This document shows positions 31,008-45,879 of a stretch of 64,000 nt of DNA, piece after piece. The notes beneath the pieces were generated by a model. That model ran no database searches. It saw only the letters and a program-made list of their open reading frames with translations, and was not told the DNA's origin. Source of the DNA: Candidatus Hadarchaeales archaeon (lineage in GTDB: Archaea > Hadarchaeota > Hadarchaeia > Hadarchaeales > Hadarchaeaceae); assembly GCA_038872135.1 (NCBI GenBank), contig JAVZGN010000002.1, forward strand, positions 41,368 to 105,367, written 5' to 3'. How positions within the stretch are numbered: position 1 is the first letter of the stretch; each line of letters opens with the position of its first letter. The position numbers and the translations under genes are program-made.

Positions 31008-31436
31008 ATGAGAAGTGGAGTTTATGTCCTTCTGATCCACGTCCCCTATTCCTTTTCAACGAAAGTTGGGGAGCTTGGGAACATTGAGTTTGAGCAAGGT
31101 TACTATGCATACATTGGCTCCGCGATGGGCGGTCTGGAGAAAAGAGTTGGGCGGCACATGAAGGGTGAAAAAAAGCTTCACTGGCACATAGACTATCTAC
31201 TGCTCCACTCCCGCCCAGTGGATGTCTTCATCGCTGAGACCAACGAGAAGTGCGAGTGTAAAATTGCTGAAGAGCTGTGCAGGAGATTCTCCTCAATCGA
31301 GGGATTTGGTTCAAGCGATTGTGGATGCAAAAGCCATCTGGTTTACTCCAAAGATCCAAATGAACTCACAAAAAGCGTAATCTCCGCTTTCAAGAACGCT
31401 GGTCTCAAGCTGGAGAAGAGGGACAGATATGGTTAA
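31008..31436 (+). CDS. DUF123 / GIY-YIG-like domain protein
   Basis: 142 aa. GVYVLLI ... GYYAYIGSA ... HWHIDYL pattern of the archaeal DUF123 (GIY-YIG-related) family. Confidence 0.6.
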   Translation: MRSGVYVLLIHVPYSFSTKVGELGNIEFEQGYYAYIGSAMGGLEKRVGRHMKGEKKLHWHIDYLLLHSRPVDVFIAETNEKCECKIAEELCRRFSSIEGFGSSDCGCKSHLVYSKDPNELTKSVISAFKNAGLKLEKRDRYG

Positions 31437-32040: not shown

Positions 32041-32050
32041 TGAAAAAATT

Positions 32051-32689
32051 TTATTCCTGCTCCCGTTTCAAAGCTTTTGCCACTTCCTCCACAGTTTTCG
32101 CCGTCACTGCCGCCAGCTTCCTTTCAAGGCTGTCAACAAACCTGCTCGCCGGAGCCCCAAGCTGCCAGAGATCGACATAGGCCTGAACTATTGGAACCAC
32201 ACCATTCTCGCTCATCGCCCTCAAGTGCTCGTCCTGTTCTAGCACAAAGATGTTTCTCTTTTTTGCTCGGCTCGGGCGGAACTTCCTCTCAACCAACTCT
32301 GAGTTTGCGTAGACGAAAACCTGGGAGTATTCTGCTGGTGTTACACCAAAAGTGAACCTGTAGGCGGAATAAGCGGTGAGCTGACCGATTTTTCTCAGCT
32401 CCTCCTCAATTTTCTCGACCTTGGCCGGCGAAAATGTCGTGTATCTGATATCCTTGCCAAGCTCTCTCGTGGCCGCCCAGTAGAGGAGGAGCCGCTTCGG
32501 GTCGACAAGCCTGAAGCCTAGGGGTCGCCTCTCAACTGCCCCTATCTGTTCAAACTTTATGATGATTGGATTAACTGTCCCCAGCGAGAGGGAGCAGGTT
32601 TTAGCGATGCTCTTCTGGTTGAAAAACCTTATGCCCTGGGAGTAGTACCTATGGAGAATTTCTCTCATCACACGGTCGATTTTTCTCAT
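32051..32689 (-). CDS. winged-HTH domain protein (putative transcriptional regulator)
   Basis: 212 aa. N-terminal HTH-like KSIAKTCSLSLGTVNPIIIKFEQIGAV. Divergently transcribed from the giant surface-protein gene. Confidence 0.45.
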   Translation of the reverse strand: MRKIDRVMREILHRYYSQGIRFFNQKSIAKTCSLSLGTVNPIIIKFEQIGAVERRPLGFRLVDPKRLLLYWAATRELGKDIRYTTFSPAKVEKIEEELRKIGQLTAYSAYRFTFGVTPAEYSQVFVYANSELVERKFRPSRAKKRNIFVLEQDEHLRAMSENGVVPIVQAYVDLWQLGAPASRFVDSLERKLAAVTAKTVEEVAKALKREQE

Positions 32690-32704
32690 GTTACCGATTA
32701 TAAG

Positions 32705-32745
32705 TCACATATTTTATTTATATTTGTTTCGCTTATAATCGAAAC
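32705..32745. promoter_or_regulatory. AT-rich divergent promoter region with TATA-like elements (ttttatttatattt, cttataat)
   Basis: Only strongly AT-rich stretch between the divergent genes 32689(-) and 32805(+). About 25-35 nt upstream of the minus-strand start, and about 65-90 nt upstream of the plus-strand ATG. Confidence 0.3.
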
Positions 32746-32804
32746 TTTTCCCTAAGGAAAAACCGGCGAAAGTTGAAAGGTGGCATAGGTCTCTTTGAAA
32801 AGCT

Positions 32805-35800
32805 ATGGTGGCCACCATAGGCAAATTTAGAGATGGGGATTGGCCCCCTGCCAACTATTCTGGGACAGTTGAAGACAGGCGGGGGGCCCACTCTCCCCAA
32901 TCCCGAATCACTAATGCTAAATTAAATGACGTTCCTTTATCTGAAAAAGCCCTTTCTATATCCATGGTGATTTTAATTCTCCTCTCAACATTTTCCCCAA
33001 TGCTTCATCTGCCGCTGGCTTCTGCCGGAAGTCTAGTCGATAATTCAACGGAAAACTTTGCTCTGGGAGTCCACGAGAACACAGAAAACATCGCAAATAG
33101 GATAAGGCTCAAATCTGGGTACACTTCCGGCCAGTTCACCTCTCAGATTTTCGATGCTGGCGTCTGGGCCCATTGGGAGACCATGAACTGGGTGGAGAAC
33201 GAGCCATTCCTACTTATCCAAGAGAATGACGATGTGGGGGCCGAGCCGGAAACTCTGGCTGACGGAAGTTTGAGAAGAGGAGAGATCCTAGGCGGTTCGA
33301 TCACAGATGTGAGGGTGTTGGACGGAGTTTATGAAAACATTGGGGAGAACACCGAGGACAACTGTCTGAATTGGGAACACAAGATCGAGAACATTACCTT
33401 CGGCTTTGAGAACTATGTGTTGAAGATCAGGGGATACACTGGAGGGGATTATGAGAATGTAGGCATTTACATCTGGGAAAATCAAGGAGCAACATGGGGG
33501 TGGAGGTTTATCGACAATTTAACCTCCACCGAAAAGACAATCGAGTGGACAATTCCCAGAACTTCCATAGAAAATTACTTAGTCAGCGGCGCTATTTTAA
33601 TCAGATATTTCGAAAACAACACCGATGCCACTCAGACTTGGGTTGTCGTCGATCTCTGCATCCTCTCTGGGGAGAACAGGATTTTTTCAGAAGTGAAGAT
33701 TCAGGTTAGGGTTAGCTCAGACAACGTGGTGTGGACTGGGTGGGCTGGCCCAAGCGGAGACGACACAACATTTTTCACTTCTTCCCCGGCAAATCTCACA
33801 CCAATTCTCGACAGAAGATATATCCAGTACAGAGTTTACTTCACCAGTCCCTCTCCATCCCTCAGCGGAGGAGATGGGCCAACTTTCGGTGAGGTGGTGA
33901 TAAACTACTCCCCGGTCAGCCCACCATCTCTTCAATCGCCCTCCAATGGCTCCTGGACAAACGACAACACCCCAACATTTGATTGGAGTGATGTAGAGGA
34001 TGCCACAGAATATCATCTTCTGGTGGACAACGACTCCAACTTTTCATCCCCAGAGATAAATGTCTTAGTGGCCTCAAGCCAATTCACCTCAGCCACCGAG
34101 CTGCCAGATGCAACATACTACTGGAAGGTCAGAGCAAAAGTTGGCAGCGACCTCTCAACCGCCTTCTCCGCACCCTGGACGGTCAACATCGCCACAGCTC
34201 CACCGACCCCACCATCTCTCATCTCGCCGGACAACGATGTTACCCTCTTCGTCGACCAGCCACTCTTCAGATGGACCATCTCAACTGGCGTGGGTGCAAT
34301 TACCTACTGGCTTGTCATAGACAATGATCAGGATTTCTCCTCCCCGATCTACAACAAAACTGGAATCTCGGAGAACTCTCATGTAATTGAAAACAAACTT
34401 CCGGAGAACTTCACTCCCTACTACTGGAAGGTTGCCGCAGTGGACAACATCGGAAACCTGAGCTGGTCTGAGTGGAGGAAGTTTGAACTGAAGGTTTTCC
34501 CGTCTTCAGTTGTCGGCCAGATCTCTCCCTACTGGCAAACAGCGCCTGTAAGCATCTCAGTGACGGCAAGTGACAACGATGGAACAATTGAAAATGTCGA
34601 GCTGTGGTACAGGTACTCGGTGGACAACTCTGAGTGGGGCCCGTGGACCTTTTATGAAAACCGCTCCTCCCCGCCCTACTCCTTTACCTTCAACTTCCCA
34701 AATGGCCAGGGCCTTTATGAGTTTTACTCGATAGCCTGGGACTCTCGCGGGAACCGGGAAAATACCCCGCCGACCCCGGACACTGCCTGTGGATTTGACA
34801 ACGCTGCCCCGCCCGCCCCAACTCTGATTCAGCCGGAAAACGATGCTGTGATCGAAACACGGAAACCAACTTTCCGGTGGACCTCTGTGACCGATCTCTC
34901 CGGCGTCACCTACAATTTGATTGTGGATAACGAAAATACTCTAGCTCCCCCACATATTTACTTTAAGACAGGAATAACGGAAAACTCTCACACAACAGAA
35001 AACTCTCTCGACATTGGGGTATATTGGTGGAAGATTGTAGCGAGGGATGCTGTGGGAAATGAAAATTCTGAGAATGTTTTTATCTTCACGCTTAGACTCT
35101 GGAACAACGTTGAGAGATGGTCTGGGGTGATAAAAACAATTTCTGGGTGGATGACAGCCGAAGTTTGGTCTGTAACAATAAATGCACCTTATGGTGTTTA
35201 TGGATATCTGCTTGTAGAAGAATGGTCGGCTGTTGTTAATGCTCCACCACCTGTTTTCACAATTGTAGAGAGCTGGACTACCACTGTTGCTAGTGAAATC
35301 TCTGAATGGAAAGTTGTGGAATCATGGACGGCCAGCATCGGGAGTGGTGGGGGATGGATGCTAGCAGAGAGTTGGATGAGTACAGTGACGGCTCTCCCGC
35401 ATATTGGGTGGTCGCAGGTTGAAACCTGGAGTTTCACAGCGGTAACACTTGCAAGATGGGAACTCGTAGAGGGATGGAATGCTTCAATCACGGCTGCTGC
35501 GTATCTCGGCTGGCCGCAGGTAGAAATGTGGTCGGTGACAGTAGATGCCCTCCCCTATGTTGAATGGGTGCAAGCTGAGATCTGGGCGGAAACATTGACA
35601 ACCTCAGCCCAATGGTTTGTATGTGAGAGCTTCGCTGCGGATATCGTCGCTAATGTGGTCTCGGGATGGACATTTGTGGAAACTTGGACCCCCACCCTAA
35701 CCTCGGTAGTGTTGAGTGGATGGACACTGGACGAAAGCTGGATTGCTACGATTACCGCGGAGATCCTTCAACCGGTTCTCCTCCTGCCCCTAGACGGGGA

Positions 35801-38800
35801 GAACACCAACAACACAAACCCAACTTTCGACTGGGAGGACAACACCCTCCCGATAGACAACTTCGAGATTCAGATAGACGATGACCAGGACTTCTCGCCC
35901 CCGCTTGTGAGATGGGAAAACACTGGGGCGACGAGCCAGTACAGCCCCGGCTTCCTTCCTGATAACCTCTACTGGTGGAGGGTTAGGATGTGGAGGGGAG
36001 GGGTGCCGGGGGCCTGGGCTCAGAGAACTGTAAGAGTTGATACACTGCCACCAGAGAAACCATCTCTCCTCTCCCCCCTAGATGGAGAAAACGAAAATGA
36101 CAGCGCACCTAATCTCCGGTGGAGCGCCCCGCCCGAGAACTCCTTCCCGCTCACTTATTTTGTCCAAATCTCCAACTCCAAATACTTCGAGCCGGAAAAC
36201 ATTGCCACAAGCGCTTGGGTGATGGAAGAGAACTGGGAGGTGCCACCGGTGCTTCAGGAGAATGTATGGTACTGGTGGAGGGTGCTTGTGAAAGACAATG
36301 CTGGAAACACAGGGGACTATTCATCTGCCAGAAAATTCAAGATAGACACCATAGCACCGCCACCGCCCACCGTCATCTGGCCGGAGAACGACGGGTGGAC
36401 GACTACCCTGCCGAACCTAGACTGGGCGCCGGTGGTTGAAAATTCCCTCCCGGTGGTCTACTTCGGAGAAATTTCACTTTTCCCAGACTTCTCCGGCAGC
36501 CCGCTCAGAACCATTTCAACGCTGGACGACAACTGGAGCGTTTCACCGGAACTCTCAGAGGGCACATACTTCTGGAGGCTTAAGGTCAGGGACAATGCAG
36601 GGAACTTGGGAAGCTGGTCGCAGGGATTTGTCTTCAAAGTTGACAACACGCCACCAACCGCACCACAGCCACCCTTCACGCCACCAAACAACGGCTCAGC
36701 GCCCACTGGGTTGGTTCAATTCCAGTGGGCGGCGGCCTCCGACAGTGGCTCGGGCGTTGCAAAATACGCGATTCAGATAGATGATGAACCTAACTTCAAC
36801 CCACCGCTTGTGCATGAAAATGACAACGTTGTTGGAACTGCATACTCTTGCCTACTTGAATTTCCGAAGACATATTACTGGAAGGTAAAAGCCATTGATA
36901 ACGTTGGCAACGAAGGGGAGTGGTCTGAGACCCTCAGTTTCTTTGCCACCACCGTCTGGAGGTCCATTGAGAGCTGGACGGGCACAATAGCTACCTCTGC
37001 CGCCTATCAACAGGCCGAGTCTTGGGTAGCCACCATCATAACTGTTGCTCAGTGGACGCCAATTGAATTTTGTGTAGGAACGATCGCCACCAGCGCTTCC
37101 TGGAAGTCTGTTGAGAGCTGGACGGCAACAATAACCACTACAGCCACATGGCAGTTTACTGAAACATGGAGTGGTATAATTGCTACCGCAGCTGCTTGGC
37201 GGTTTGCTGAGACATGGGCTGGTACAATTGCTACTGCTGCTCAGTGGCAGCTAGTTGAATCATGGCAGGTAACCATTACAACATCGGCTCAGTGGCAGGT
37301 TGTCGAGAGTTGGACTGGAACGATAACGACTTCTGCTTCATGGCAGCAGGTTGAATCGTGGACTGCCACAATCGCTACTGCGGCCGTCTGGCAGGTTGTT
37401 GAATCCTGGATATGCACGATAAAGGTTGGTGGAGAATGGAAACTAGCAGAAAGCTGGTCCGTTAATATTGCCCCGCCTGCCGACTGGAACTACATTGAAA
37501 CTTGGGCGGCAAAAATTATCGCTATCATTCCCGCTCCAATCCCAGTTTCCCCGCGTAATGGAGAGAACAAAAACACGCTTCCAACCCTCCGCTGGGACAA
37601 CCTTCTCCCTGCAGACAACTTCCAGCTCCAGATAGACAACAACCCAGACTTTTCCTCACCAGAAAACGACCTTACAGTCTTTGAGAACTTCTACACACCG
37701 CCAGCCCTCCAAGACAACCTCTGGTACTGGAGAGTTAGGACATTCAGGAACAACGAGAACTCTGCTTGGTCCACTGTGTGGAAGTTCAGGATCGACAGGC
37801 TTGCTCCTGGAAAACCTGTGCTCGTTTCACCGAGCGATGGGGAGAACATCAACGACAACACTCCACTCTTCCGCTGGCAGGCCCCACCAGAAAACTCCTT
37901 CCCGCTCGTCTACACCATCCAGATATCCACAACTTCAACATTCGCTCCCGGAACATACAACGAGTTCGCCGTTACCTCTTACGAGCAGGAAGTGGGCTGG
38001 ATGGTTCCGCAAGAAAACCCCTTGGCCGACAACATCTACTACTGGAGGGTAAAGGCAAGAGACAACGCAGGCAACGAGGGAGCATTCTCTACACCCAGAA
38101 AGTTCAGGGTTGACACTGTTTCGCCAGTCATTACCCTCATCTCGCCGGCAAACGGTGAAACCGTCAGCTCGAGACCAACTCTGAGCTGGTCCCTCGTTTA
38201 TGCCGAAAATACCTTGCCCGTCGTCTATAACGCTTTGATCTCTGACACCAGCACCTTCGAATTCAGCTATGAAAATGTGAAAATAACCGAGAACTCATAC
38301 ACCACCCAGCCACTCGACGAAAGCGTTGGAACATATTACTGGAAGGTTTGCGCATGGGACAATGCAGGAAACTGGAGCGGATGGTCCGAGACGAGGTGGT
38401 TCACAGTCAGAACTGCGTGGAGACAGGCTGAGAGCTGGAACCTCATGCTGACTACTTCTAGCCAGTGGAATCTGGCTGAAAGCTGGTCTGCCGCTGCTAC
38501 GACTTCGGCCGAGTGGAGACAAGTTGAAGCATGGGGTACAGTGCTCAGTACAACTGCTAAGTGGTCGCAGGTTGAAACATGGCAAGCAACAATGGTCGCT
38601 TCTGCTAGCTGGCAACAGGTTGATGGCTGGGCTGTAACTCTAATAACCGCCGCAAACTGGCTCCTCGCTGAAACATGGCAGGGGATTGCAACGACTACCG
38701 CAAAGTGGTTCTCAACAGAATCTTGGACAGGGGCAGTAGCCACTGTCTCTATCTGGCAAACTATAGAGAACTGGTGGGCTATGGTAACTGCTCCAGTTTA

Positions 38801-41800
38801 TCATGGATGGATTAACGCTGAAAGTTGGAGCGGATACGTATCGTCTGGGGGTGGCTGGGTCCCCGCCGAATTCTGGAGCGCAACTATCGAAGGATGGGCT
38901 TTTTGGAAGATTGTTGAAAGCTGGTCAGACACGATAAACGCTAGCGCAGGTTGGAAAACCACTGAAACATGGCAAGTTCAAATATACTCGCCAATCCCAG
39001 CACCTGTTCTCATCTTCCCGCCAGATGGCTATAACTTCAGCCCAAGTGTCGGAGAGCTTGTGCTTAAGTGGGACAACTCGCAGCCGGCAGACAACTTTGA
39101 GATTCAAATAGACAACGATTTCGACTTTTCTTCCCCAGAAGTAGACGATTTCACCTCTACCGAAAACTTTGTGGTCCCGTCCCTGCCTGACAACCTCTAC
39201 TGGTGGAGAGTAAGGACCTTCAGAACTGGCGAGAATTCTCAGTGGTCCGAGGTTTGGAGGTTCCGCATCGATAACATTCCCCCAGCTGTTCCTTCCCTCC
39301 TCGCTCCTTCAGAAGGGGAGAACATCAACGATAACACTCCGCTTCTTAGGTGGCAGGCCCCGCCCGAGAACTCCTTCCCGCTCAGATATAGGGTTCAGGT
39401 TGCTACCGACAAATTCTTCACAAACATTGTGAGGGAGGCTCTCTGGACGGTCACGGCGGAGAACTGGGAGATCCCGGCCGAAAACTCGCTGCCAGACAAC
39501 ATGTACTACTGGAGAGTCGCGGCAAAAGATAACGCGGGCAACTACAGCATGTTCTCCTCCTATAGAAGCTTCAGGGTCGACACCCTCAAGCCCGCGGTTC
39601 CATCTCTCACTTCTCCACCCCATGGAGCTTGGATCGCCTTCCCATCTCTCACGTGGAGCAAAGTAACCGATATCTCTCTCCCGCTTCTCTATAACCTTCA
39701 GATAGCCTATGACAACGACTTCTCCCATCTCGTTGTGAACGTGGAGCTTCTGGATAACTCCTGGAGCGGGCCACTGGATGAGGGGTTATACTGGTGGAAA
39801 GTTCAGGCGAAAGATGGAGCCGGCAACCTGAGCGGATGGTCGGAAAACCGGAAGTTCATCGTTGACAACGCCCCGCCGACAAAGCCGGTTCTCTCTACAC
39901 CTGAAAACAGCACAGATGTGAATATAGGGACAATAACATTTGGATGGCAGGCTTCTGATCCTGGAGCTGGAATTTCAAAATACTGGATTCAGATAGATAA
40001 TGAACCTGACTTTGATAACACCTTTTTCGTGCACGAAAATCAGATGGTCACAGAAAATACCTATCAGTACATCATCTCAGTGAGCGGAAGATATTATTGG
40101 AGGGTAAGGGCAATAGACGGGGCTGGAAACATCGGTGAATGGTCGGACAACTGGAACTTCTTCGTATATGGCTGGAGCTCCATTGAAAGCTGGATGGCAA
40201 TGATCAGTGGGCCGAGCCAGTGGAGAAATGTTGAGAGCTGGAATGCAACTATCAAAACTAGGGCTTATATCTGGGAAAAGCTGGAGAACTGGAGCGCCAG
40301 CATTCAGGCCCCATTTTTGGCAGGGTGGAGTTTTGTGGAAAGCTGGCAGGTAGAATTCATTTCCGTTACAGTATCTTGGAGAGGTGTTGAAAGCTGGAGA
40401 GCGATTATAACTGGAAGAGTGATTGCTCCGGTACTTCTCTCCCCCTCGAATGGCCTGAACACATCTCAGAACCCACTCACATTCAGGTGGGAGAATGTCC
40501 ATCTCGCTGACAACTACAGGATCCAGATAGATAACAAGTCCCCGGTGGTTGCTTACGAAAATGACAATGTGGGGGCCGAGCCGGAAACCCTGGTTGACGG
40601 AAGCTTGAGAAGAGGAGAGATCCTAGGCGGCTCGATCACAGATGTAATGGTTCTGGACGGAGTTTATGAAAATATTGGAGAGAACACCGAGGACAACTGT
40701 CTGAATTGGGAACACAAGATCGAGAACATTACCTCCGGCTTTGAGAACTATGTGTTGAAAATTAAGGGATACACTGAAGGAGACAATGAAAACATCTTTG
40801 TGTACATCTGGGAGAATGACTTTGGGACTTGGAGATGGCGAGAAATTGGAACCATCACCTCAAATGAAACAACAATCGTCTGGGAAATGAAATACACAAA
40901 CATCGAGAAATATTTGATGGATGGCTCGATTTATGTCAGATATCTTGAAAACACTCCAGACTTGGTGCAAACGGTTCTTCACATAGATCTCTGCGTGCTG
41001 ATGGAAAATCTCGAGAATCTGACTCCACCATTTTTAGTTGACGCAACGAGCACTGACAACTTCTACACCTACACATTCCCCGAGAATGGGAGATACTGGT
41101 GGAGAGTAATGGCAATGGTCCAGGGGATTGTCGGAGATTGGTCAAACATCTGGACGGTTCGAGCCGATACTGTTGCTCCACAGCCGCCAATCCTGATATC
41201 CCCAATCCACCATGAAAATGTTAATGATACTACTCCACTTCTCCGCTGGCAGGCCCCGCCCGAGAATTCTCTTCCCGTGAAATTCTTTGTTCAGGTAGCA
41301 ACCGATCCAACATTCAATACTATCATTAGAGAAAACTGGGTTGTTGGAGAGCAATGGGAGGTGTATCCGCCACTACAGGAAAATGTTTACTACTGGATGG
41401 TGCTTGCGGTTGACAATGCAGGAAATTCCAGTCCTCCCTCTCCAACCTGGGAGTTTAGGGTTGACATAACATCTCCCGCCACGCCTGAACCCAAAGCCCC
41501 CCGTGATGGAGAAAATCTGAATGACAACACCCCAGAACTAGTGTGGACTAGTGTTTGGGATGATTCTCGGCCAGTAGTCTATCGCATTCAAGTAGCTTAT
41601 GATGAGGCATTCCAGTTTATGGTTCCTGGATGCGATGTTTATGTCTATGAAAACACTTGGACAACTCCCGAGCTTCCCAGCGAGAGAGTGTATCGATGGA
41701 GAGTCAAGGCCATAGACAATGCTGGAAATGAAAGTGGATGGTCTCCAACTCAAAGATTCAGGTTCGACTGCAGCCCGCCACTCCCCCCATCTCTTATCTC

Positions 41801-44390
41801 CCCAATGCCTGGCGAAAATGTTGGTAGCTCGACTCCAACCTTCTCTTGGGCGGCCCCATTCGAAAACTCAACCCCGATAAAATACTATCTTTCCATCAGC
41901 GATAATGAAGACTTCCCATACGAGAACGAAAACTCTGGATGGATCTCCTCAACTTCTTGGATAGTACAATCTCCTCTCTCAGACGGCATCTGGTACTGGA
42001 GGGTGAAGGCAAGAGACAACGCCGGCAACGAGGGAGCATTCTCTACACCCAGAAAGTTCAGGGTTGATACGCTTCCACCCGAGAATGTTTCTCTGCTGGA
42101 GCCGGAAAATGGCACGACGGTAGGTGATAACACTCCACTGCTGAAGTGGTCTAGTGCGGTAGACAACTCCCTTCCGGTAAAGTATGTTGTGGTTGTAGCT
42201 CGCGACCCCGCCTTCGCAGATAATGTCATCTCCTCTCCTTGGCTCGACAATGAAAATTGGGAAATCCCACTGGGGCTCTTGGACAACACATACTATTGGA
42301 AGGTGAGGGCGAGAGATAACGCAGGAAACATCTTTGAAACGCCATCTTGGTGGTTCATCGTTGAAAATGCCTCGCCCTTCATGCCACAGCTCGTCAGGCC
42401 TGCAAACGGAGCATGGGAAAACGACAACACCCCGACCTTCAAATGGGAAAACGCATGGGACATTTCACAACCAGTGGAATATTTTGTGTGGCTCTCCACC
42501 GACAACCTCTTTGAAAACATTGTACTCACCAGTGGCTGGGTGGAGAACGAGAACTGGACGGTTCCGGCGGAAAATTCCCTCTCGGATAATGTAAAATATT
42601 ACTGGAGGGTTCAGGCAAAAGACAACACCGGAAAGCTCAGCGAGAATTCTGAGACATGGTGGTTCATCGTCGACGTGGTGGTTCCGCCAAGGATAAACCT
42701 CTGGTCGCCGCCTAACGACGCCGTCTTCGAGAAGCTCACGATCACCTTCACTTGGGAAAGTGTGACCGATAATTCTGGAGTAACCTATCACATAGAAATA
42801 GATAATGAGCCCAGCTTCTCTAGCCCACTTGTGGATAGTAGATATACCACCAACGCCGTCCTGCCAAGTTACACCTTCCAAAAAACAGGGTGGTACTACT
42901 GGAGGGTAAGGACGATAGACGGAGCTGGAAATATCGGTGAATGGTCGGACAACTGGGTGATTTTGATTGGTAGATGGACTTTTCTAGAGCGCTGGAACGA
43001 GATAACAATCATTAGCCAGCCCACGGCGTGGAAATGGATAGAATCATGGGGATTAACTATAAAGGCTCCAAGCGGCTGGACCTTGGTCGAGAGCTGGCAG
43101 GCCACAGCCGTCGGAGCAATCCGATGGAGAGTTGCCGAAAGCTGGTCACTGAGCATTAGGACTAGGCCCTACTACTGGACTAAGGTTGAGGCATGGGAGA
43201 ATGTGGCAACATTGAGAGGATACCCGATTCCAGTTTGGAGATTTGCTGAAAACTGGGGAGGGATATCAATCATTTCTCTCCCACGTGAATTTAGATTTGT
43301 TGAAACTTTCAATGCTCAGATAAGGGCTCCGGCGGAAATAATTGACTTCCTCACCGCCATTGAGCGGCCACCGCCAAAGTGGGAGGAAATAGAGAAGATG
43401 CATGCGACCTTTAGGGCAAAAGAGCCGCTGCCAGGAATCCCTGTGACCGTCGGAAGGGTGATGCCCGGAACTACTTCAACGGCAGATTTTTCCGCCTTCG
43501 ACATCCCAGTGATCAAGATTGAAATAACTCTTAAGCCAGACGCCCCTGCCACAGAGATCGCTCCGATCGTCCTCTCAGCCAAGGCCGTTGACAACATCCC
43601 AGGAATATCTGGTCCTCCGGGCGAAACATACAAATTCTTGGAATTTGGTGTGGATGGGATACCACCGGAATACATTCAGAACTTCAGGGTGCGGTTCAGG
43701 GTTGAAAAGAGGTGGCTTCTCGGGATGGATGAGAAAACTCTCGAGGTGGTGAGGCTGAGCGGCAATTGGGTGCGAGTACCTTTTGAACTAATTAGCTCAA
43801 CTGAAGATTACAACATATATGAAATGGCTGGCGATGTCTATTCGACCTTTGCGATAATAGCGCAGAAAAAGACGCTACCACTTCAAGCCCCGCCGGTCGT
43901 CTTGATTCCAACTGGAGAAGCCCCATCCCCAAGTCCCATTGGATTATTTGTGCTTCTCGGCATAGGCGGGATAGCAGTGGGGCTGATGTTCTATCGTTCT
44001 GTCGCGAAAATAAGAATTGGCGGACTTGAGAAAGAGCTTGAGAAGCTCCAAAAGGCGCCTCCGACAAAAAAGGTGGCGGTGAGAGGTGTAAGGATAACGC
44101 TTCCCAAAGTGGAAAAAATGGAGATTAAGAGGATTGCCAGAGCGATTTGGGGTCCACCGCCAATCCCGAGAGTTCCTCCGCCTGAAAGACGCCTGGCCCC
44201 GCCAGAAATCGCGGCTGTGGAAACTCTCGAGAAGTTCATCGCTGAAAGGAGAAAGAAGGCGCCGAAAATAGCGGTTGAAAAAATTGAAGAGGTGAGAAAA
44301 AAGCTGAGCAAGGAGGAGATTGAGGTTTTCAAGACCCTAGAAAAATTTGTTGGAAAGAGAAGGAAAGCCATGAAAAGAGGAGGTGGATGA
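32805..44390 (+). CDS. giant cell-surface protein (3,861 aa): signal-like N-terminus, unknown ~150-aa domain (x2), ~35-40 fibronectin-III-like modules, five blocks of a 16-aa Trp-periodic repeat, C-terminal TM anchor and basic tail
   Basis: Uninterrupted 11,586-nt ORF. Hydrophobic segment MVILILLSTFSPMLHLPLASAG (alternative ATG at 32964). Fn3-like modules end in ...YYW[RK]V[RK]A.DNAGN.S.WS....F.VDT.[AP]P. Many N-x-S/T sequons. C-terminal TM IGLFVLLGIGGIAVGLMFY followed by a K/R-rich tail. Confidence 0.8.
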   Translation: MVATIGKFRDGDWPPANYSGTVEDRRGAHSPQSRITNAKLNDVPLSEKALSISMVILILLSTFSPMLHLPLASAGSLVDNSTENFALGVHENTENIANRIRLKSGYTSGQFTSQIFDAGVWAHWETMNWVENEPFLLIQENDDVGAEPETLADGSLRRGEILGGSITDVRVLDGVYENIGENTEDNCLNWEHKIENITFGFENYVLKIRGYTGGDYENVGIYIWENQGATWGWRFIDNLTSTEKTIEWTIPRTSIENYLVSGAILIRYFENNTDATQTWVVVDLCILSGENRIFSEVKIQVRVSSDNVVWTGWAGPSGDDTTFFTSSPANLTPILDRRYIQYRVYFTSPSPSLSGGDGPTFGEVVINYSPVSPPSLQSPSNGSWTNDNTPTFDWSDVEDATEYHLLVDNDSNFSSPEINVLVASSQFTSATELPDATYYWKVRAKVGSDLSTAFSAPWTVNIATAPPTPPSLISPDNDVTLFVDQPLFRWTISTGVGAITYWLVIDNDQDFSSPIYNKTGISENSHVIENKLPENFTPYYWKVAAVDNIGNLSWSEWRKFELKVFPSSVVGQISPYWQTAPVSISVTASDNDGTIENVELWYRYSVDNSEWGPWTFYENRSSPPYSFTFNFPNGQGLYEFYSIAWDSRGNRENTPPTPDTACGFDNAAPPAPTLIQPENDAVIETRKPTFRWTSVTDLSGVTYNLIVDNENTLAPPHIYFKTGITENSHTTENSLDIGVYWWKIVARDAVGNENSENVFIFTLRLWNNVERWSGVIKTISGWMTAEVWSVTINAPYGVYGYLLVEEWSAVVNAPPPVFTIVESWTTTVASEISEWKVVESWTASIGSGGGWMLAESWMSTVTALPHIGWSQVETWSFTAVTLARWELVEGWNASITAAAYLGWPQVEMWSVTVDALPYVEWVQAEIWAETLTTSAQWFVCESFAADIVANVVSGWTFVETWTPTLTSVVLSGWTLDESWIATITAEILQPVLLLPLDGENTNNTNPTFDWEDNTLPIDNFEIQIDDDQDFSPPLVRWENTGATSQYSPGFLPDNLYWWRVRMWRGGVPGAWAQRTVRVDTLPPEKPSLLSPLDGENENDSAPNLRWSAPPENSFPLTYFVQISNSKYFEPENIATSAWVMEENWEVPPVLQENVWYWWRVLVKDNAGNTGDYSSARKFKIDTIAPPPPTVIWPENDGWTTTLPNLDWAPVVENSLPVVYFGEISLFPDFSGSPLRTISTLDDNWSVSPELSEGTYFWRLKVRDNAGNLGSWSQGFVFKVDNTPPTAPQPPFTPPNNGSAPTGLVQFQWAAASDSGSGVAKYAIQIDDEPNFNPPLVHENDNVVGTAYSCLLEFPKTYYWKVKAIDNVGNEGEWSETLSFFATTVWRSIESWTGTIATSAAYQQAESWVATIITVAQWTPIEFCVGTIATSASWKSVESWTATITTTATWQFTETWSGIIATAAAWRFAETWAGTIATAAQWQLVESWQVTITTSAQWQVVESWTGTITTSASWQQVESWTATIATAAVWQVVESWICTIKVGGEWKLAESWSVNIAPPADWNYIETWAAKIIAIIPAPIPVSPRNGENKNTLPTLRWDNLLPADNFQLQIDNNPDFSSPENDLTVFENFYTPPALQDNLWYWRVRTFRNNENSAWSTVWKFRIDRLAPGKPVLVSPSDGENINDNTPLFRWQAPPENSFPLVYTIQISTTSTFAPGTYNEFAVTSYEQEVGWMVPQENPLADNIYYWRVKARDNAGNEGAFSTPRKFRVDTVSPVITLISPANGETVSSRPTLSWSLVYAENTLPVVYNALISDTSTFEFSYENVKITENSYTTQPLDESVGTYYWKVCAWDNAGNWSGWSETRWFTVRTAWRQAESWNLMLTTSSQWNLAESWSAAATTSAEWRQVEAWGTVLSTTAKWSQVETWQATMVASASWQQVDGWAVTLITAANWLLAETWQGIATTTAKWFSTESWTGAVATVSIWQTIENWWAMVTAPVYHGWINAESWSGYVSSGGGWVPAEFWSATIEGWAFWKIVESWSDTINASAGWKTTETWQVQIYSPIPAPVLIFPPDGYNFSPSVGELVLKWDNSQPADNFEIQIDNDFDFSSPEVDDFTSTENFVVPSLPDNLYWWRVRTFRTGENSQWSEVWRFRIDNIPPAVPSLLAPSEGENINDNTPLLRWQAPPENSFPLRYRVQVATDKFFTNIVREALWTVTAENWEIPAENSLPDNMYYWRVAAKDNAGNYSMFSSYRSFRVDTLKPAVPSLTSPPHGAWIAFPSLTWSKVTDISLPLLYNLQIAYDNDFSHLVVNVELLDNSWSGPLDEGLYWWKVQAKDGAGNLSGWSENRKFIVDNAPPTKPVLSTPENSTDVNIGTITFGWQASDPGAGISKYWIQIDNEPDFDNTFFVHENQMVTENTYQYIISVSGRYYWRVRAIDGAGNIGEWSDNWNFFVYGWSSIESWMAMISGPSQWRNVESWNATIKTRAYIWEKLENWSASIQAPFLAGWSFVESWQVEFISVTVSWRGVESWRAIITGRVIAPVLLSPSNGLNTSQNPLTFRWENVHLADNYRIQIDNKSPVVAYENDNVGAEPETLVDGSLRRGEILGGSITDVMVLDGVYENIGENTEDNCLNWEHKIENITSGFENYVLKIKGYTEGDNENIFVYIWENDFGTWRWREIGTITSNETTIVWEMKYTNIEKYLMDGSIYVRYLENTPDLVQTVLHIDLCVLMENLENLTPPFLVDATSTDNFYTYTFPENGRYWWRVMAMVQGIVGDWSNIWTVRADTVAPQPPILISPIHHENVNDTTPLLRWQAPPENSLPVKFFVQVATDPTFNTIIRENWVVGEQWEVYPPLQENVYYWMVLAVDNAGNSSPPSPTWEFRVDITSPATPEPKAPRDGENLNDNTPELVWTSVWDDSRPVVYRIQVAYDEAFQFMVPGCDVYVYENTWTTPELPSERVYRWRVKAIDNAGNESGWSPTQRFRFDCSPPLPPSLISPMPGENVGSSTPTFSWAAPFENSTPIKYYLSISDNEDFPYENENSGWISSTSWIVQSPLSDGIWYWRVKARDNAGNEGAFSTPRKFRVDTLPPENVSLLEPENGTTVGDNTPLLKWSSAVDNSLPVKYVVVVARDPAFADNVISSPWLDNENWEIPLGLLDNTYYWKVRARDNAGNIFETPSWWFIVENASPFMPQLVRPANGAWENDNTPTFKWENAWDISQPVEYFVWLSTDNLFENIVLTSGWVENENWTVPAENSLSDNVKYYWRVQAKDNTGKLSENSETWWFIVDVVVPPRINLWSPPNDAVFEKLTITFTWESVTDNSGVTYHIEIDNEPSFSSPLVDSRYTTNAVLPSYTFQKTGWYYWRVRTIDGAGNIGEWSDNWVILIGRWTFLERWNEITIISQPTAWKWIESWGLTIKAPSGWTLVESWQATAVGAIRWRVAESWSLSIRTRPYYWTKVEAWENVATLRGYPIPVWRFAENWGGISIISLPREFRFVETFNAQIRAPAEIIDFLTAIERPPPKWEEIEKMHATFRAKEPLPGIPVTVGRVMPGTTSTADFSAFDIPVIKIEITLKPDAPATEIAPIVLSAKAVDNIPGISGPPGETYKFLEFGVDGIPPEYIQNFRVRFRVEKRWLLGMDEKTLEVVRLSGNWVRVPFELISSTEDYNIYEMAGDVYSTFAIIAQKKTLPLQAPPVVLIPTGEAPSPSPIGLFVLLGIGGIAVGLMFYRSVAKIRIGGLEKELEKLQKAPPTKKVAVRGVRITLPKVEKMEIKRIARAIWGPPPIPRVPPPERRLAPPEIAAVETLEKFIAERRKKAPKIAVEKIEEVRKKLSKEEIEVFKTLEKFVGKRRKAMKRGGG
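33222..33680 (+). repeat. copy 1 of intragenic duplication (unknown ~150-aa domain of the giant protein)
   Basis: About 90% nucleotide identity over the first ~230 nt with 40556..41012, including a 55-nt exact run gagaacaccgaggacaactgtctgaattgggaacacaagatcgagaacattacct. Confidence 0.8.
35095..35770 (+). repeat. W16 block 1: ~14 tandem 16-codon (48-nt) Trp-periodic repeats inside the giant ORF
   Basis: Protein repeats such as VESWTTTVASEISEWK / VESWTASIGSGGGWML / AESWMSTVTALPHIGWSQ... with Trp at i and i+6 in each 16-residue unit. Ends at ...ILQPVLLLP before the next Fn3. Confidence 0.75.
36950..37535 (+). repeat. W16 block 2: ~12 tandem 16-codon Trp-periodic repeats (cleanest block)
   Basis: WQFTETWSGIIATAAA / WRFAETWAGTIATAAQ / WQLVESWQVTITTSAQ / WQVVESWTGTITTSAS / WQQVESWTATIATAAV / WQVVESWICTIKVGGE / WKLAESWSVNIAPPAD... 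The 48-nt periodicity is visible in the DNA (tggcag...gaatc/gtgg...). Confidence 0.85.
38410..39000 (+). repeat. W16 block 3: ~12 tandem Trp-periodic repeats
   Basis: WRQAESWNLMLTTSSQ / WNLAESWSAAATTSAE / WRQVEAWGTVLSTTAK / WSQVETWQATMVASAS / WQQVDGWAVTLITAAN ... Ends at ...YSPIPAPV. Confidence 0.8.
40170..40430 (+). repeat. W16 block 4: ~5 tandem Trp-periodic repeats
   Basis: WSSIESWMAMISGPSQ / WRNVESWNATIKTRAY / IWEKLENWSASIQAPFLAG / WSFVESWQVEFISVTVS / WRGVESWRAIITGRVIAP. Confidence 0.75.
40556..41012 (+). repeat. copy 2 of intragenic duplication (unknown ~150-aa domain)
   Basis: See 33222..33680. Protein NDNVGAEPETLVDGSLRRGEILGGSITDVMVLDGVYENIGENTEDNCLNWEHKIENITSGFENYVLKIKGYTEGD... versus the N-terminal copy. 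Confidence 0.8.
42970..43345 (+). repeat. W16 block 5: ~8 degenerate Trp-periodic repeats
   Basis: WTFLERWNEITIISQPTA / WKWIESWGLTIKAPSG / WTLVESWQATAVGAIR / WRVAESWSLSIRTRPYY / WTKVEAWENVATLRGYPIPV / WRFAENWGGISIISLP... Confidence 0.7.
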
Positions 44391-45033
44391 GGTGGAGCCA
44401 GAATTTCGCCTGACGAGGGCGGGAAAAATTAAATGGAAGCTGAAGAAAAACTGGAAAGTTATCGCGGCAATTATTCTATCTATATCAATAGCGGTGGGAG
44501 TTTATCTCTCAACCCTCCAGCCATCCAAGATTTCCAGAAGAGCTAAGATTACTGCTCCCTATGTTGAATTTGAAAGTAGAAGGGGGTTCTTTGCCGTGCG
44601 TAAATACCAGGAGTCTGGAATCGAAAACATTTACATCGTTAAATTTCCCAATTTTGACCCGACCAGGGATGCGATGTCTCAGCTGGAAAATGTTGATGCA
44701 ATCATTTCGAGTAGCGGGCAAACTGTGGATGTTTCGGACAATGCCCTTTTTGCTATAGTTGTGGCCGTTAGAGCAAAGGCTCCAGACAACATCGCATATG
44801 TGGTCAAAGAGAATATGTGGGTCTGGCTCGGGGCTAGTGGAGCATTCACCATCCCGAACTCTCTGGCTCCAGACTGGAAAGAATATGTTTTTGAGAGTTC
44901 TGGATATGGAACTGCGAATGGTTACATGAGAGTAAATGTGATCTGGGACAACGATGGCGAGGGATATATACTGTACGCAGGGCAACATCTCTTCATAGAC
45001 AACATCGTCTTGAAATTTTTCAGTCCAAGATAG
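44383..45033 (+). CDS. single-pass membrane protein (N-terminal TM anchor, extracellular beta-rich domain); paralogue of 58128..58724
   Basis: 216 aa. TM WKVIAAIILSISIAVGVYLSTL. Shared motifs with the paralogue: ENIYI[VM]K, [SP]GQTVD[VI], YVFE[SN]SGYGTANGY[MV]R[VI]N. Start overlaps the giant ORF stop by 8 nt. Confidence 0.6.
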   Translation: MDEVEPEFRLTRAGKIKWKLKKNWKVIAAIILSISIAVGVYLSTLQPSKISRRAKITAPYVEFESRRGFFAVRKYQESGIENIYIVKFPNFDPTRDAMSQLENVDAIISSSGQTVDVSDNALFAIVVAVRAKAPDNIAYVVKENMWVWLGASGAFTIPNSLAPDWKEYVFESSGYGTANGYMRVNVIWDNDGEGYILYAGQHLFIDNIVLKFFSPR

Positions 45034-45081: not shown

Positions 45082-45879
45082 TTGGCGGACCGAAAGATGA
45101 AACAACCTTCAATACCTGAACTTTTGAGACCGAAGCGAGAAAGGGGAATAGAAATAAAACCGAAACATGGGAGAGTGGTTGGGCTTTTTTCCTGCAAGGG
45201 AGGTGTTGGAAAGACTACCACCACGGCAAATCTCAGTCTCGCCCTTTTGGAAAAACTTGGAACGAATATCTTGGCTTTCGACGCAAACATCGGTGCCCCT
45301 AACCTTGGACTGCATTTTGGCGAGCTAACTCCAAAAATAACAGTTCATGATGTCATCTCCGCGGAGCTTCCGGTGGAAAATGCTATTCTCACAGTTCAGG
45401 GGTTGAAGATGATTTTGGGATCGATAGCCTTTGAAGATGAAGTTCACCTGGTAGATCTCAGGGAGCTGATAAACCCCTTGAGAAAGATGTTCAAACTTGT
45501 CATCGTCGACTCTGCCCCGGGGATAGGAAGCGAGGTGGTCGCCGCCCTGAAGGCCTGTGACGAGATAATAATTGTCACGGACCCATATGTCCCAACGATC
45601 GCAAGCACATTGAAGACATTTCGGGCAGCAGAAAAATATAAGGTTCCAATCTTCGGTGTTGTTGTGAACAGGGTGGCGGGGGACCCGTTTGAGCTTCCGA
45701 TCAAAGAAATAAGAAAGGCATTAGGGTGGCCTGTGGTGGCGGTGGTCCCGGAAGACAAGAAAGTGAGGGAAGCAACTGCTGCCGGCATCCCTGTAGTAAA
45801 ATATGCGCCGAAGTCGCCGGCCGCCAAAGAGTTTGTTATGCTGGCGAACACTGTGTATGAACATCTCAGAAAGGGGTAG
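45082..45879 (+). CDS. MinD/ParA-family P-loop ATPase (archaeal MinD-like)
   Basis: 265 aa. Deviant Walker A LFSCKGGVGKTTT, Walker B/VIVDSAPG, standard MinD-like layout. Confidence 0.85.
   Translation: MADRKMKQPSIPELLRPKRERGIEIKPKHGRVVGLFSCKGGVGKTTTTANLSLALLEKLGTNILAFDANIGAPNLGLHFGELTPKITVHDVISAELPVENAILTVQGLKMILGSIAFEDEVHLVDLRELINPLRKMFKLVIVDSAPGIGSEVVAALKACDEIIIVTDPYVPTIASTLKTFRAAEKYKVPIFGVVVNRVAGDPFELPIKEIRKALGWPVVAVVPEDKKVREATAAGIPVVKYAPKSPAAKEFVMLANTVYEHLRKG

Follow-up and report, generated by a model that had tools for sequence, protein, structure and literature searches.

A giant modular surface protein with a tryptophan-periodic repeat, encoded near a MinD-type ATPase gene in a probable Hadarchaeota archaeon

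The locus and its giant reading frame

The window, as we call the whole 64-kb stretch of DNA analyzed here, is dominated by one reading frame on the forward strand that runs for 11.6 kb without a stop and is by far its largest ORF (Table 1), just as a sequence-only reading of the same DNA had stated. The core of that reading also holds: the product is a single giant, modular cell-surface protein in which fibronectin-III (Fn3)-type modules alternate with a tryptophan-periodic repeat outside described families (here termed W16). Upstream and divergently transcribed lies a gene whose 212-aa product is possibly a regulator, while downstream follow a 216-aa ORF without a family match, homologs of which recur at W16 loci, and the gene for a MinD-type ATPase. 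Rfam and tRNA scans gave no match inside the giant gene.

Table 1. Features of the locus in window coordinates (nt), with residue positions in the 3861-aa protein where they apply.
Feature	Position (nt)	Strand	Residues (aa)	Remarks
212-aa protein	32051..32689	-		Divergently transcribed; weak winged-HTH matches; conserved upstream of orthologs
Giant ORF	32805..44390	+	1-3861	3861 aa + stop codon; stop-free frame
N-terminal extension	32805..32951	+	~49 aa	Hydrophilic, before hydrophobic segment; alternative start M54
Hydrophobic segment	32952..33023	+	50-73	Signal-peptide-like or signal-anchor; ends ASA/GS; hydropathy scan
N-terminal (distal) domain	33027..33914	+	75-370	Without a sequence match in Pfam, NCBIfam, or the PDB
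Nested ~148-aa domain, copy 1	33222..33665	+	140-287	Within N-terminal domain
Array 1	33924..35090	+		Fn3-type modules at aa 374, 470, 672; Big_7-like domain
Big_7-like domain	34497-34808	+	565-668	Inside array 1; Big_7 E = 1.3e-6
W16 block 1	35100..35771	+	766-989	~13 units, some degenerate
Array 2	35772..36947	+		Four Fn3-type modules, subtypes A-B-C-D
W16 block 2	36957..37535	+	1385-1577	12 units; predicted beta-solenoid
Array 3	37536..38411	+		Three Fn3-type modules, A-B-C
W16 block 3	38418..39002	+	1872-2066	12 units
Array 4	39003..40169	+		Four Fn3-type modules, A-B-C-D
W16 block 4	40173..40427	+	2457-2541	5 units
Array 5	40428..42971	+		Seven Fn3-type modules; first (aa 2542-2788) split by nested domain
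Nested ~148-aa domain, copy 2	40557..41000	+	2585-2732	Duplicate of copy 1, inserted in Fn3 module
W16 block 5	42975..43334	+	3391-3510	~6-7 units, degenerate towards end
PGF-pre-PGF domain	43461..43880	+	~3551-3692	TIGR04213; E = 1.1e-11, 44.9 bits, cutoff 28; match at aa ~3551-3686
TM helix	43938..43994	+	3712-3730	IGLFVLLGIGGIAVGLMFY; single C-terminal helix after Pro/Ser linker
Cytoplasmic tail	43995..44387	+	3731-3861	131 aa; basic, Lys/Arg-rich
Tail motif, copy 1	44208-44255	+	3802-3817	E-I-x-x-[VF]-x-T-L-E-K-F-[IV]-x-x-R-R-K
Tail motif, copy 2	44319-44366	+	3839-3854	Same motif
216-aa ORF	44383..45033	+		Overlaps giant gene's stop by 8 nt; N-terminal TM helix, ~170-aa outer domain
MinD-type ATPase	45082..45879	+		Archaeal; deviant Walker A (KGGVGKT); conserved neighbor of W16 genes

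The frame is real and encodes a membrane-anchored surface protein, with partial support from independent assemblies. Exact look-ups gave no record for the giant protein or for the Nre protein. Window positions 29696-35900 are 100% identical to a GenBank MAG contig (found via the FtsJ neighbor), an independent fragment (P0146) is collinear at 77.5% identity over aa 3040-3860 (the last 820 aa), and another (P0029) shares 66% identity over aa 1062-1567. Full-length syntenic orthologs of 3,271-3,690 aa from other samples (P0018, P0154, and P0012) have the same domain order, though they are just 40-46% identical and vary in their numbers of W blocks and modules. An assembly artifact (i.e., repeats expanded, collapsed, or misjoined) or a non-functional remnant would fit the end, at position 35900 within the gene, of the matching short-read contig, as well as the fragmentary state of many database members of the W16 family; yet the frame holds no stop, the orthologs and fragments keep its order, and its internal DNA repeats are diverged. 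Specifically, comparing the gene with itself yields only five self-matches; the strongest cover 261 nt (88% identity), 84 nt (94%), and 63 nt (90%), and the others fall below 75%. We consider an artifact or a remnant barely credible.

The N-terminal region and the Fn3-type modules

Only two hydrophobic segments emerge from a hydropathy scan of the protein, aa ~50-73 and aa 3712-3730. The first is the signal-like segment anticipated at the start of the protein; orthologs have VSAAS/FTD at the position equivalent to ASA/GS, and at two orthologous loci (L003 and L024) the in-frame N-terminal extension is conserved and starts MVRTK. The distal domain beyond this segment, described before as an unknown domain of ~150 aa, spans ~300 aa and lacks known relatives. 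The domain nested within it recurs in array 5, the two copies sharing 88.5% DNA identity over 261 nt—a duplication that is new relative to the sequence-only reading. In Pfam, NCBIfam, and PDB sequence searches, neither the N-terminal nor the nested domain found relatives of known function, and the best PDB match of the nested-domain profile was discarded as chance-level (E = 0.12).

The ectodomain further contains 22 Fn3-superfamily modules and one Big_7-like domain, the latter likewise an addition to the earlier description. The repeated modules are ~95 aa long, and their alignment reproduces the consensus given before, albeit loosely: the strict form YYW[RK]V[RK]A.DNAGN fits two modules and SP.DG.N.ND.TP.F.W fits one. 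Arrays of 5-9 modules had been proposed, but the actual counts are 3 (+1), 4, 3, 4, and 7, and the [IV][IP]AP[VI] junction that was said to follow each W block does so after three of the five. The super-repeat of this layout is [W block]-A-B-C-D.

That these modules are fibronectin-III-like is borne out by Pfam Ig_Rha78A_N (PF25788; 162.8 bits, cutoff 27.4, E = 3.3e-48, 10 stretches) and Big_13 (PF19077; 123.8 bits, cutoff 27, E = 4.8e-36), and by a 20-module profile that matches the solved Fn3 domains of titin (8q6t, 1e-20), chitinase A1 (ChiA1; 1k85, 1e-4), and RPTP-delta (4e-5). Because Pfam fn3 (PF00041) scores 23.0 bits (E = 9.4e-5), under its gathering score of 25, the modules are, by these profile scores, divergent Fn3-superfamily domains and not canonical fn3. 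AF2 models two modules flanking a W block at pLDDT 80-90.

A tryptophan-periodic repeat outside described families

All five blocks of the Trp-periodic repeat that had been read from the sequence were located. The repeat (WxxVESWxATIxTxAx) totals about 50 units, most of them exactly 16 residues long; some have 17-18 residues, a few are degenerate, and Trp makes up 5.9% of the protein. Blocks of the same protein match one another at E = 1e-15 to 1e-28 in a local test, but no Pfam or NCBIfam model matches them, and no paper describing a W16 repeat or family turned up in literature searches on PGF-pre-PGF, on Trp-ladder solenoids, and on surface proteins of Hadarchaeota. Since neither a W16 model nor a paper was found, these searches do not place the protein in an adhesin family already described with a named W-repeat linker. 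As far as comparison at the sequence level goes, W16 is a Trp-periodic repeat outside any described family.

We defined membership of the W16 family as tandem 16-residue W-x-x-[IVA]-E-[ST]-W-x-[GA]-T-[IV]-x-[AT]-x-A-x units in blocks of at least three, a definition under which the window protein falls with its five blocks. An exhaustive HMMER profile search retrieved 174 representatives at E <= 1e-3, 57 of them at E <= 1e-30. Neither W16 block 2 nor the C-terminal 309 aa had retrieved anything in word-index homolog searches, which, given the 174 relatives retrieved by HMMER, reflects a limitation of the index on such composition and not absence. The family consensus, from 1,147 units, is W-[QN]-L-[IV]-E-[TS]-W-[TS]-G-T-[VI]-x-A-P-A-x, with uniform, Thr/Ala-rich repeat faces; the alignment has no conserved stretch of 7-10 columns, and related loci in genomes were found with a hand-made three-repeat DNA pattern. 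Nearly every genuine genome match falls in a MAG of Hadarchaeota or Hadesarchaea, and these genomes carry several loci each; the earlier reading was right to take the organism for an archaeon. About 30 single matches, most in bacteria and a few in archaea other than Hadarchaeota, were rejected together with all eight matches in IMG/VR: they are DNA tandem repeats unrelated to W16, for the most part out of frame or stop-containing, and lack a profile hit. On this survey, the W16 family is rare, has several members per genome, and occurs largely in Hadarchaeota. Relatives of the organism are from hot springs and deep-subsurface settings.

Structure prediction suggests that W16 blocks are probably folded beta-solenoid rods and not linkers, each block being predicted to fold into a parallel beta-solenoid whose coils correspond to single repeats. 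In a first AF2 run with three alignment rows the W block reached pLDDT 40-57; with a 25-row alignment it reached pLDDT 72.8 and pTM 0.67, i.e., moderate confidence. Foldseek returned essentially only beta-solenoids for this model (CsgA, bactofilin, and the S-layer protein RsaA among them), none of them significant and the best at E = 0.24. On another reading, the W16 solenoids would resemble pectate lyases and phage tailspike depolymerases in being catalytic or glycan-processing beta-helices, here of a surface polymer-degrading enzyme. That reading is very improbable: the matches to such proteins reflect generic solenoid geometry at 3-17% sequence identity, coils of 16 residues are far shorter than the 22 or more residues of pectate-lyase-type helices, the uniform repeats lack active-site-forming loops and acidic clusters, and no enzyme family was matched in Pfam or NCBIfam. 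As a compact 16-residue, two-Trp unit without a Pfam or NCBIfam model, W16 is of interest to fold catalogs and as a potential thermostable rod-like building block.

Membrane anchor and cytoplasmic tail

The single TM helix and basic tail of ~130 aa described earlier at the end of the protein are both present (Table 1). The PGF-pre-PGF domain before the helix and the twice-repeated motif in the tail had been overlooked, and the relatives share the order PGF-pre-PGF, TM helix, tail. The PGF-pre-PGF/PGF-CTERM surface proteins of archaea, which are archaeosortase A substrates, have the same arrangement, with a Pro/Ser/Thr linker between the PGF-pre-PGF domain and a hydrophobic helix. In contrast to those substrates, the helix here starts P-I-G-L-F instead of PGF and is followed by 131 residues instead of a few basic ones. 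Because of these two differences, and because a search of aa 3703-3861 at E <= 10 gave no PGF-CTERM match, the window protein is probably not cleaved by archaeosortase and lipid-anchored.

Across 7,655 residues of tail sequence, motifs resembling the tail repeat (L-x-x-L-E-K/R-F-like) number 57, whereas composition-preserving shuffles give 3.2 +/- 1.9 (an enrichment of ~18-fold); in the ectodomains they number 9 per 81,828 residues. Variants of the tail motif include LKRLERA, TLEKFI, and ISLKRLK types. An earlier suggestion, namely heavy N-glycosylation from dozens of sequons, is not borne out. With 40 N-x-S/T sequons observed and 39.7 expected from composition, there is no enrichment, and so sequon statistics give the idea no basis. 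Some W16 relatives carry one or two sequons per coil.

A MinD-type neighbor

The ATPase encoded downstream has minD_arch (TIGR01969, NCBIfam) as its best model, at 187.3 bits against a trusted cutoff of 201.75, and its best PDB matches are archaeal MinDs (P. furiosus 1g3q, 2.6e-39; 1ion, 7e-37). To survey the wider neighborhood, we took as informative the 36 W16 loci with a visible 3' end, each within an 8-kb span. A MinD gene lies within 2.5 kb of the W16 gene 3' end in 24 of them, and about one third of the informative loci have no MinD in the 8-kb span. A 5,559-aa relative (P0011) also has MinD downstream.

ParA/MinD genes often lie near their own cargo loci, and their partners bind via short charged peptides (PMC10241942); in archaea, MinD4 positions the motility machinery (bioRxiv 10.1101/2020.04.03.021790). 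By analogy with such positioning of neighbor-encoded cargo, we infer that the MinD-type ATPase may recognize the tail via its repeated L-x-x-L-E-K/R-F-type motif and thereby set the place of the giant protein on the cell. The adjacency could instead be inherited gene order without functional coupling, with MinD acting in division or other positioning, and with the tail motif binding membrane lipids, a cytoskeletal protein, or nothing specific. We take this joint alternative seriously while leaning against it. Sixteen of the 24 MinD-bearing loci are convergent (gap <= 80 bp or overlap), so that in most loci the two genes are not co-transcribed; the loci all come from one phylum, within which inheritance of gene order could explain much of the adjacency; in the remaining 12 of the 36, no MinD lies 3' of the W16 gene within 2.5 kb; and the tails are generally Lys/Arg-rich, like any positive-inside tail. 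On the contrary, simple inheritance does not readily account for separate paralogous loci in one genome that each have their own diverged MinD (44-74% identity to the window's MinD), as in MAG157 and JZ-2_bins_146 with three separate W16-MinD loci each. Nor does it for an adjacency that persists although orientation and side (3' or 5') vary, for the excess of the tail motif over shuffles, or for the lack of a MinD neighbor in two short-tailed W16 proteins (P0007 and P0004).

Proposed role

We favor, with moderate confidence, a type-I membrane-anchored, adhesin-like surface fiber of a probable Hadarchaeota archaeon, its placement perhaps controlled by MinD. If each W16 block folds as a solenoid, it follows that solenoids and modules would be strung together as stiff rods of ~2.5-6 nm and beads of ~4 nm. 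Such an ectodomain, if extended, would be about 100 nm long and would hold the N-terminal domain(s) far from the cell, and the protein may attach the cell to other cells or to solid surfaces.

A structural component of the envelope (e.g., an S-layer-associated canopy, sheath, or matrix fiber), in which W16 solenoids pack laterally into an extracellular lattice, cross-beta/amyloid-like as in curli or bactofilin, would share several of these features. PGF-pre-PGF domains are typical of archaeal envelope proteins, genomes carry several W16 paralogs, the repeat faces are uniform and Thr/Ala-rich, and CsgA, bactofilin, and RsaA stand among the solenoid matches. We nevertheless judge it unlikely, as one giant TM-anchored chain that carries a unique domain at its distal end is reminiscent of fibrillar adhesins, and the low identity and differing W block and module numbers of the orthologs better fit a fast-evolving interaction protein than a lattice subunit.

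The adhesin-like fiber lends itself to a more specific proposal, which we hold to be doubtful: a lineage-specific, two-part Hadarchaeota system in which each giant Trp-ladder solenoid fiber would be paired with its own MinD, which would read the tail motifs and place the fiber at defined sites, such as poles or zones of contact with syntrophic partners. If true, this would be the first ParA/MinD system with a cell-surface adhesin as cargo, and it would tie cytoplasmic spatial patterning to the archaeal cell exterior.

Widely distributed in hot springs and deep-subsurface settings, Hadarchaeota have so far been cultivated in syntrophic enrichment cultures only (PMC10811742, PMC11297162), and we found no publication on their cell surface in the searchable literature. 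The W16 genes offer a recognizable, multi-copy, fast-evolving set of predicted ~100-nm surface fibers of this phylum, which are prime candidates for cell-cell or cell-mineral contact, and the MinD pairing and conserved tail motif yield a testable hypothesis on what many orphan archaeal MinD paralogs position.

Comparison with known systems

Ice-nucleation proteins of the InaZ type are modeled as beta-solenoids with one coil per repeat and with aromatic and Thr ladders. Like W16, they have long arrays of 16-residue repeats; they differ in being bacterial outer-membrane proteins with the consensus AGYGSTxTAxxxSxLx. An ice-nucleation protein was rejected here for this different consensus and for the lack of a Pfam INP match at E <= 1.

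The ice-binding adhesin of Marinomonas primoryensis (MpIBP; RIV beta-solenoid, PDB 3p4g) and the giant RTX adhesins are bacterial, type I secreted, and outer-membrane anchored. MpIBP has one distal solenoid block of RTX/Ca2+-binding 19-residue coils, whereas the window protein is archaeal, interleaves five predicted solenoid blocks of 16-residue Trp coils with modules, and ends in a C-terminal TM helix and cytoplasmic tail; the two have no sequence similarity (7% identity). An RTX/type I secreted adhesin is ruled out by the archaeal context, by the C-terminal TM helix and basic tail, and by the absence of any RTX/hemolysin-type Ca-binding Pfam match in the window protein. The adhesin-like proteins of methanogens (Methanobrevibacter and Methanosphaera) and the autotransporter/TpsA adhesins (Ag43, TibA, FHA, and EtpA) are pectate-lyase-like/autotransporter beta-helices with larger, irregular coils, and they have no W16 repeat, PGF-pre-PGF anchor, or conserved cytoplasmic tail.

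For the proposed coupling to MinD, the comparison is with ParA/MinD positioning systems (bacterial McdAB, ParC, and FlhG; Haloferax MinD4 and MinD2). Among their known cargoes we found no giant surface protein, and their known partner peptides are N-terminal, whereas the motifs of the window protein sit in its C-terminal tail. What these systems share with the W16 loci is a deviant-Walker-A ATPase encoded beside a candidate cargo with short charged motifs.

Integrity of the giant reading frame

The giant gene is one open reading frame of 3,861 codons with zero internal stops; the second largest ORF of the window has 925. This bears out the sequence-only reading of a single uninterrupted frame that is the window's biggest. 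That this frame is an assembly artefact is unlikely, because several lines of evidence converge on its integrity. Its internal repeats have diverged at the DNA level (a self-comparison gave only five matches, led by ones of 261, 84 and 63 nt with 88.5%, 94% and 90% identity, respectively), and a public short-read MAG contig (JAVZLN010000053.1; GCA_038883755.1) is 100% identical to window 29696-35900, simply ending within the gene just past W block 1, the first of five arrays of a 16-residue Trp repeat (W16). P0018, a 3,672-aa orthologue from an unrelated ENA assembly (cluster member P0154, 3,690 aa), shares both the window's gene order (PTPS, DUF123, FtsJ, divergent 211-aa protein, giant gene, MinD) and the domain order of the giant protein, and two fragments match the giant protein as well: P0146 (77.5% identical, collinear, aa 3040-3860) and P0029 (66% identical, aa 1062-1567).

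The start codon at 32805 is plausible. Because two orthologous loci (L003, 9806-10000, and L024; MVRTK...YS.N..L.GPNP.N) share a conserved open frame 5' of the signal-like segment, there are hints of an N-terminal extension of ~50-65 residues (window 32805-32951) that would be translated, cytoplasmic and omitted by gene callers.

Coordinates of the giant gene, its neighbours and the features of its product
Feature	Position	Strand	Remark
Divergent 212-aa HTH-like gene	32051-32689	-	
Giant gene, 3,861 aa	32805-44390	+	
216-aa ORF	44383-45033	+	overlaps giant gene stop by 8 nt; TM helix and ~170-aa outer domain
MinD-type deviant-Walker-A ATPase gene	45082-45879	+	48 nt past 216-aa ORF; giant gene's direction
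Signal-like hydrophobic segment	aa ~50-73		Kyte-Doolittle; ends ASA|GS
Nested domain, copy 1	aa 140-287		autonomous unit inside N-terminal region
Nested domain, copy 2	aa 2585-2732		inserted within first Fn3 module of array 5
W blocks 1-5	aa 766-989, 1385-1577, 1872-2066, 2457-2541, 3391-3510		
Fn3 type A	starts aa 990, 1578, 2067, split 2542		always directly after W block
Fn3 type B	aa 1086, 1671, 2163, 2795, 2995		second position
Fn3 type C	aa 1188, 1776, 2266		third position
Fn3 type D	aa 1288, 2361, 3298		directly before W block
C-terminal TM helix	aa 3712-3730		Kyte-Doolittle; then 131-residue Lys/Arg-rich tail
216-aa homologues at other loci	L003 22355-23152 and 23729-24577; L047, L073, L080, L040, L064, L058		

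Topology and modular architecture

Only two hydrophobic segments emerged from a Kyte-Doolittle scan, and these, with the basic tail, match the signal-like segment, single C-terminal TM helix and ~130-aa tail first read from the sequence. We infer that the protein is exported Sec-dependently and retained by its TM helix, which would leave the tail cytoplasmic. Just before this helix lies a PGF-pre-PGF domain (TIGR04213; 44.9 bits vs a cutoff of 28), by which the protein belongs to the family of that name; it lacks the canonical PGF-CTERM sorting signal, as its helix opens P-I-G-L-F and has 131 residues after it. The heavy N-glycosylation once suggested has no statistical basis, because the N-x-S/T sequons number 40 vs 39.7 expected from composition. 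For the N-terminal region (aa 75-370), Pfam, NCBIfam and PDB yielded no relatives; the domain nested in it occurs in one to four copies, at varied positions, among relatives.

A self-trained HMM delimited 22 modules of ~95 aa each, one of them (aa 2542-2788) interrupted by an insertion, and a separate Ig-like domain (Big_7, E = 1.3e-6) spans aa 565-668. The modules match Ig_Rha78A_N (3.3e-48, 10 stretches) and Big_13 (4.8e-36) in Pfam, with canonical fn3 at 23.0 bits, just under its threshold of 25; a profile of 20 modules (alignment A5) matches solved Fn3 domains of titin (8q6t, 1e-20) and chitinase A1 (1k85, 1e-4) as well as those of RPTP-delta and contactins, and AF2 gave pLDDT 80-90 for the modules on either side of W block 2. 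The modules thus belong to the Fn3 superfamily, and the Fn3-like label is correct at that level. Finer details of the sequence-only reading fared less well: the arrays hold, in order, 3(+1), 4, 3, 4 and 7 modules rather than 5-9, the strict module motifs fit only a few modules, and the [IV][IP]AP[VI] junction is present after three W blocks and missing after the other two. The modules sort into positional subtypes A, B, C and D, which makes the evolutionary unit a super-repeat, [W block]-A-B-C-D, and the number of super-repeats varies among orthologues.

The W16 repeat family

Tryptophan makes up 5.9% of the giant protein (228 residues) and is concentrated in the W blocks, five in number as the sequence-only reading had it; their units (WxxVESWxATIxTxAx) are mostly exactly 16 residues long, a few being 17-18 or degenerate. 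The repeat has no family match in Pfam or NCBIfam. When 1.84 billion cluster representatives were searched exhaustively with an HMMER profile, 174 related proteins, P0146 among them, came up at E <= 1e-3, 57 of the 174 at E <= 1e-30. A word-indexed homology search gave zero matches for two parts of the giant protein; with repeat-rich queries, nulls of this second search cannot be relied on. As a consensus, 1,147 units of the family give W-[QN]-L-[IV]-E-[TS]-W-[TS]-G-T-[VI]-x-A-P-A-x, and the periods are 16 (1,147 units), 17 (268) and 18 (66). Most relatives are large, the longest having 5,559 aa; because the public MAG contig breaks inside the gene and many database members are fragments, the size and abundance of the family are probably underestimated. 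The largest (P0011; L092, JGI 3300035660) has 30 Fn3-type modules and a cytoplasmic tail of ~540 aa with weak or faint Pfam matches to HerA_C and DUF87 (ATPase).

The family is restricted in lineage. Available source names are 'PGF-pre-PGF domain-containing protein', Ca. Hadarchaeales (MEM1981440.1) and Ca. Thorarchaeota (MHA1858900.1). When 185,579 species-representative genomes were scanned for a DNA pattern of three consecutive in-phase W-x3-E-x-W units, 86 stretches were recovered, and those confirmed by profile, often 3-6 loci to a genome, fall in ~26 MAGs; almost every one of these MAGs carries the label Hadesarchaea, Hadarchaeota or Hadarchaeum. Combined with the syntenic orthologues, this distribution places the organism that carries the giant gene very probably in Hadarchaeota. 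Single-match stretches in bacteria and in a few archaea outside Hadarchaeota were unrelated tandem DNA repeats, as were all IMG/VR matches, so that no true W16 match was found in IMG/VR.

With three alignment rows, AF2 returned pLDDT 40-57 for a W block; with 25 family W blocks aligned, W block 2 reached a mean pLDDT of 72.8 and pTM of 0.67, and each 16-residue unit is predicted to form one coil of a parallel beta-solenoid, in which two ladders of Trp and one of Glu would run from coil to coil. The usual rise of a beta-solenoid is 0.48 nm per coil, at which 12 units would make a rod of ~5.8 nm. Ig/Fn3-type beads are ~3.5-4 nm long, and ~23 such beads plus ~50 coils would give an extended ectodomain of roughly 100-120 nm. 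A rival reading takes W16 to be a catalytic beta-helix; on our reading, the W blocks would be stiff rods alternating with Fn3 beads. In four relatives (P0028, P0063, P0073, P0128) each coil bears one or two N-x-S/T sequons (e.g., WNSIQDWNITISNTS; WNITISNTS), which implies that positions 8 and 13 are surface-exposed there and that the solenoid could be glycosylated on each turn; the giant protein is without these per-coil sequons.

Gene neighbourhood and the MinD pairing

The giant gene sits among archaeal housekeeping genes (Nre, DUF123, FtsJ, an aspartyl/asparaginyl-type tRNA synthetase, primase, Sua5, PPDK). Three glycosyltransferase genes (GT4, GT2, GT4; window 27299-30303) lie 2.5 kb upstream and may bear on surface glycans. 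Elsewhere, a 925-aa putative surface protein (window 55411-58188, minus strand) combines DUF2341, a Kelch beta-propeller and Big_1/invasin-type Ig domains; its sequence is unrelated to the giant gene, and an AAA_14/DUF4143 ATPase gene (54131-55414, plus strand) adjoins it.

For the MinD neighbour the best model is archaeal MinD TIGR01969, at 187 bits (below the cutoff of 201.75), and among solved structures the best matches are MinD of Pyrococcus and of Archaeoglobus (1g3q, 2.6e-39). The neighbourhood is conserved. We surveyed 8-kb loci around W16 repeats in other genomes, 55 of which had a W16 ORF, its 3' end visible in 36: in 24 of these 36 the 3' flank has a MinD homologue no more than 2.5 kb away, 16 of the 24 being convergent and either separated by <= 80 bp or overlapping, and two more loci have MinD at the 5' end, beside the divergent HTH gene. 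Homologues of the 212-aa HTH-like protein also recur at W16 loci. MAG157 and JZ-2_201705_bins_146 each carry three distinct W16+MinD loci, with MinD copies that share 44-67% identity with that of the window; the pair has thus been duplicated or kept together as a unit. P0011 has a ParA/MinD gene 1 kb downstream.

The 216-aa ORF has no family match; homologues of this single-pass protein recur at W16/MinD loci, sometimes in two copies, and it may have an accessory part in the system. Two further relatives, P0007 (2,831 aa; L090, JGI 3300022539) and P0004 (2,637 aa; L091, Logan ERR5988145), have only 10-11 residues past the TM helix and no MinD nearby. Their genes are embedded in long runs of small co-directional ORFs without Pfam matches, a layout that looks like that of a virus or mobile element.

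A motif in the cytoplasmic tails

The giant protein's tail carries E-I-x-x-[VF]-x-T-L-E-K-F-[IV]-x-x-R-R-K twice (aa 3802-3817 and 3839-3854). Across 59 non-identical tails of W16 proteins (TM helix then 40-600 residues), the motif [LIV]-x-x-[LIV]-[EK]-[KR]-x occurs 57 times in 7,655 residues, vs 3.2 +/- 1.9 in composition-preserving shuffles (maximum 11 in 200) and 9 per 81,828 residues in ectodomains; at least one copy is found in 39 of the 59, with variants including LKRLERA, LERLKRI, TLEKFI and ISLKRLK. In Haloferax, MinD4 positions the archaellum and chemosensory arrays (bioRxiv 10.1101/2020.04.03.021790; PMC11588486). From gene-neighbourhood and motif statistics only, we hypothesize that the tail motif is a handle by which the adjacent MinD positions the fibre; the rival is that MinD is adjacent without function.

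Proposed role and comparison with known systems

The N-terminal domain and its nested copy could serve as binding heads by which the fibre attaches the cell to partner cells or surfaces, and placement of the fibre would depend on MinD. The giant protein could instead be an envelope or lattice component. A cultured Hadarchaeon is reported to form aggregates (PMC10811742), which fits an attachment role, but the paper is silent on the giant protein.

The W16 repeat, the nested N-terminal domain and the W16-MinD pairing with its tail motif were not found in Pfam, NCBIfam, PDB sequences or a searched literature of 8 million papers, and appear undescribed. In working principle, the proposed attachment fibre resembles giant fibrillar adhesins, above all MpIBP, which combines Ig-like extenders with a beta-solenoid, and also methanogen adhesin-like proteins and autotransporter beta-helices. 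The giant protein is a member of none of these groups: RTX or T1SS features, an autotransporter barrel, an INP consensus and a PGF-CTERM signal are all absent. Set beside them, the giant gene would encode a giant modular surface fibre whose repeat family and genomic association are both new.
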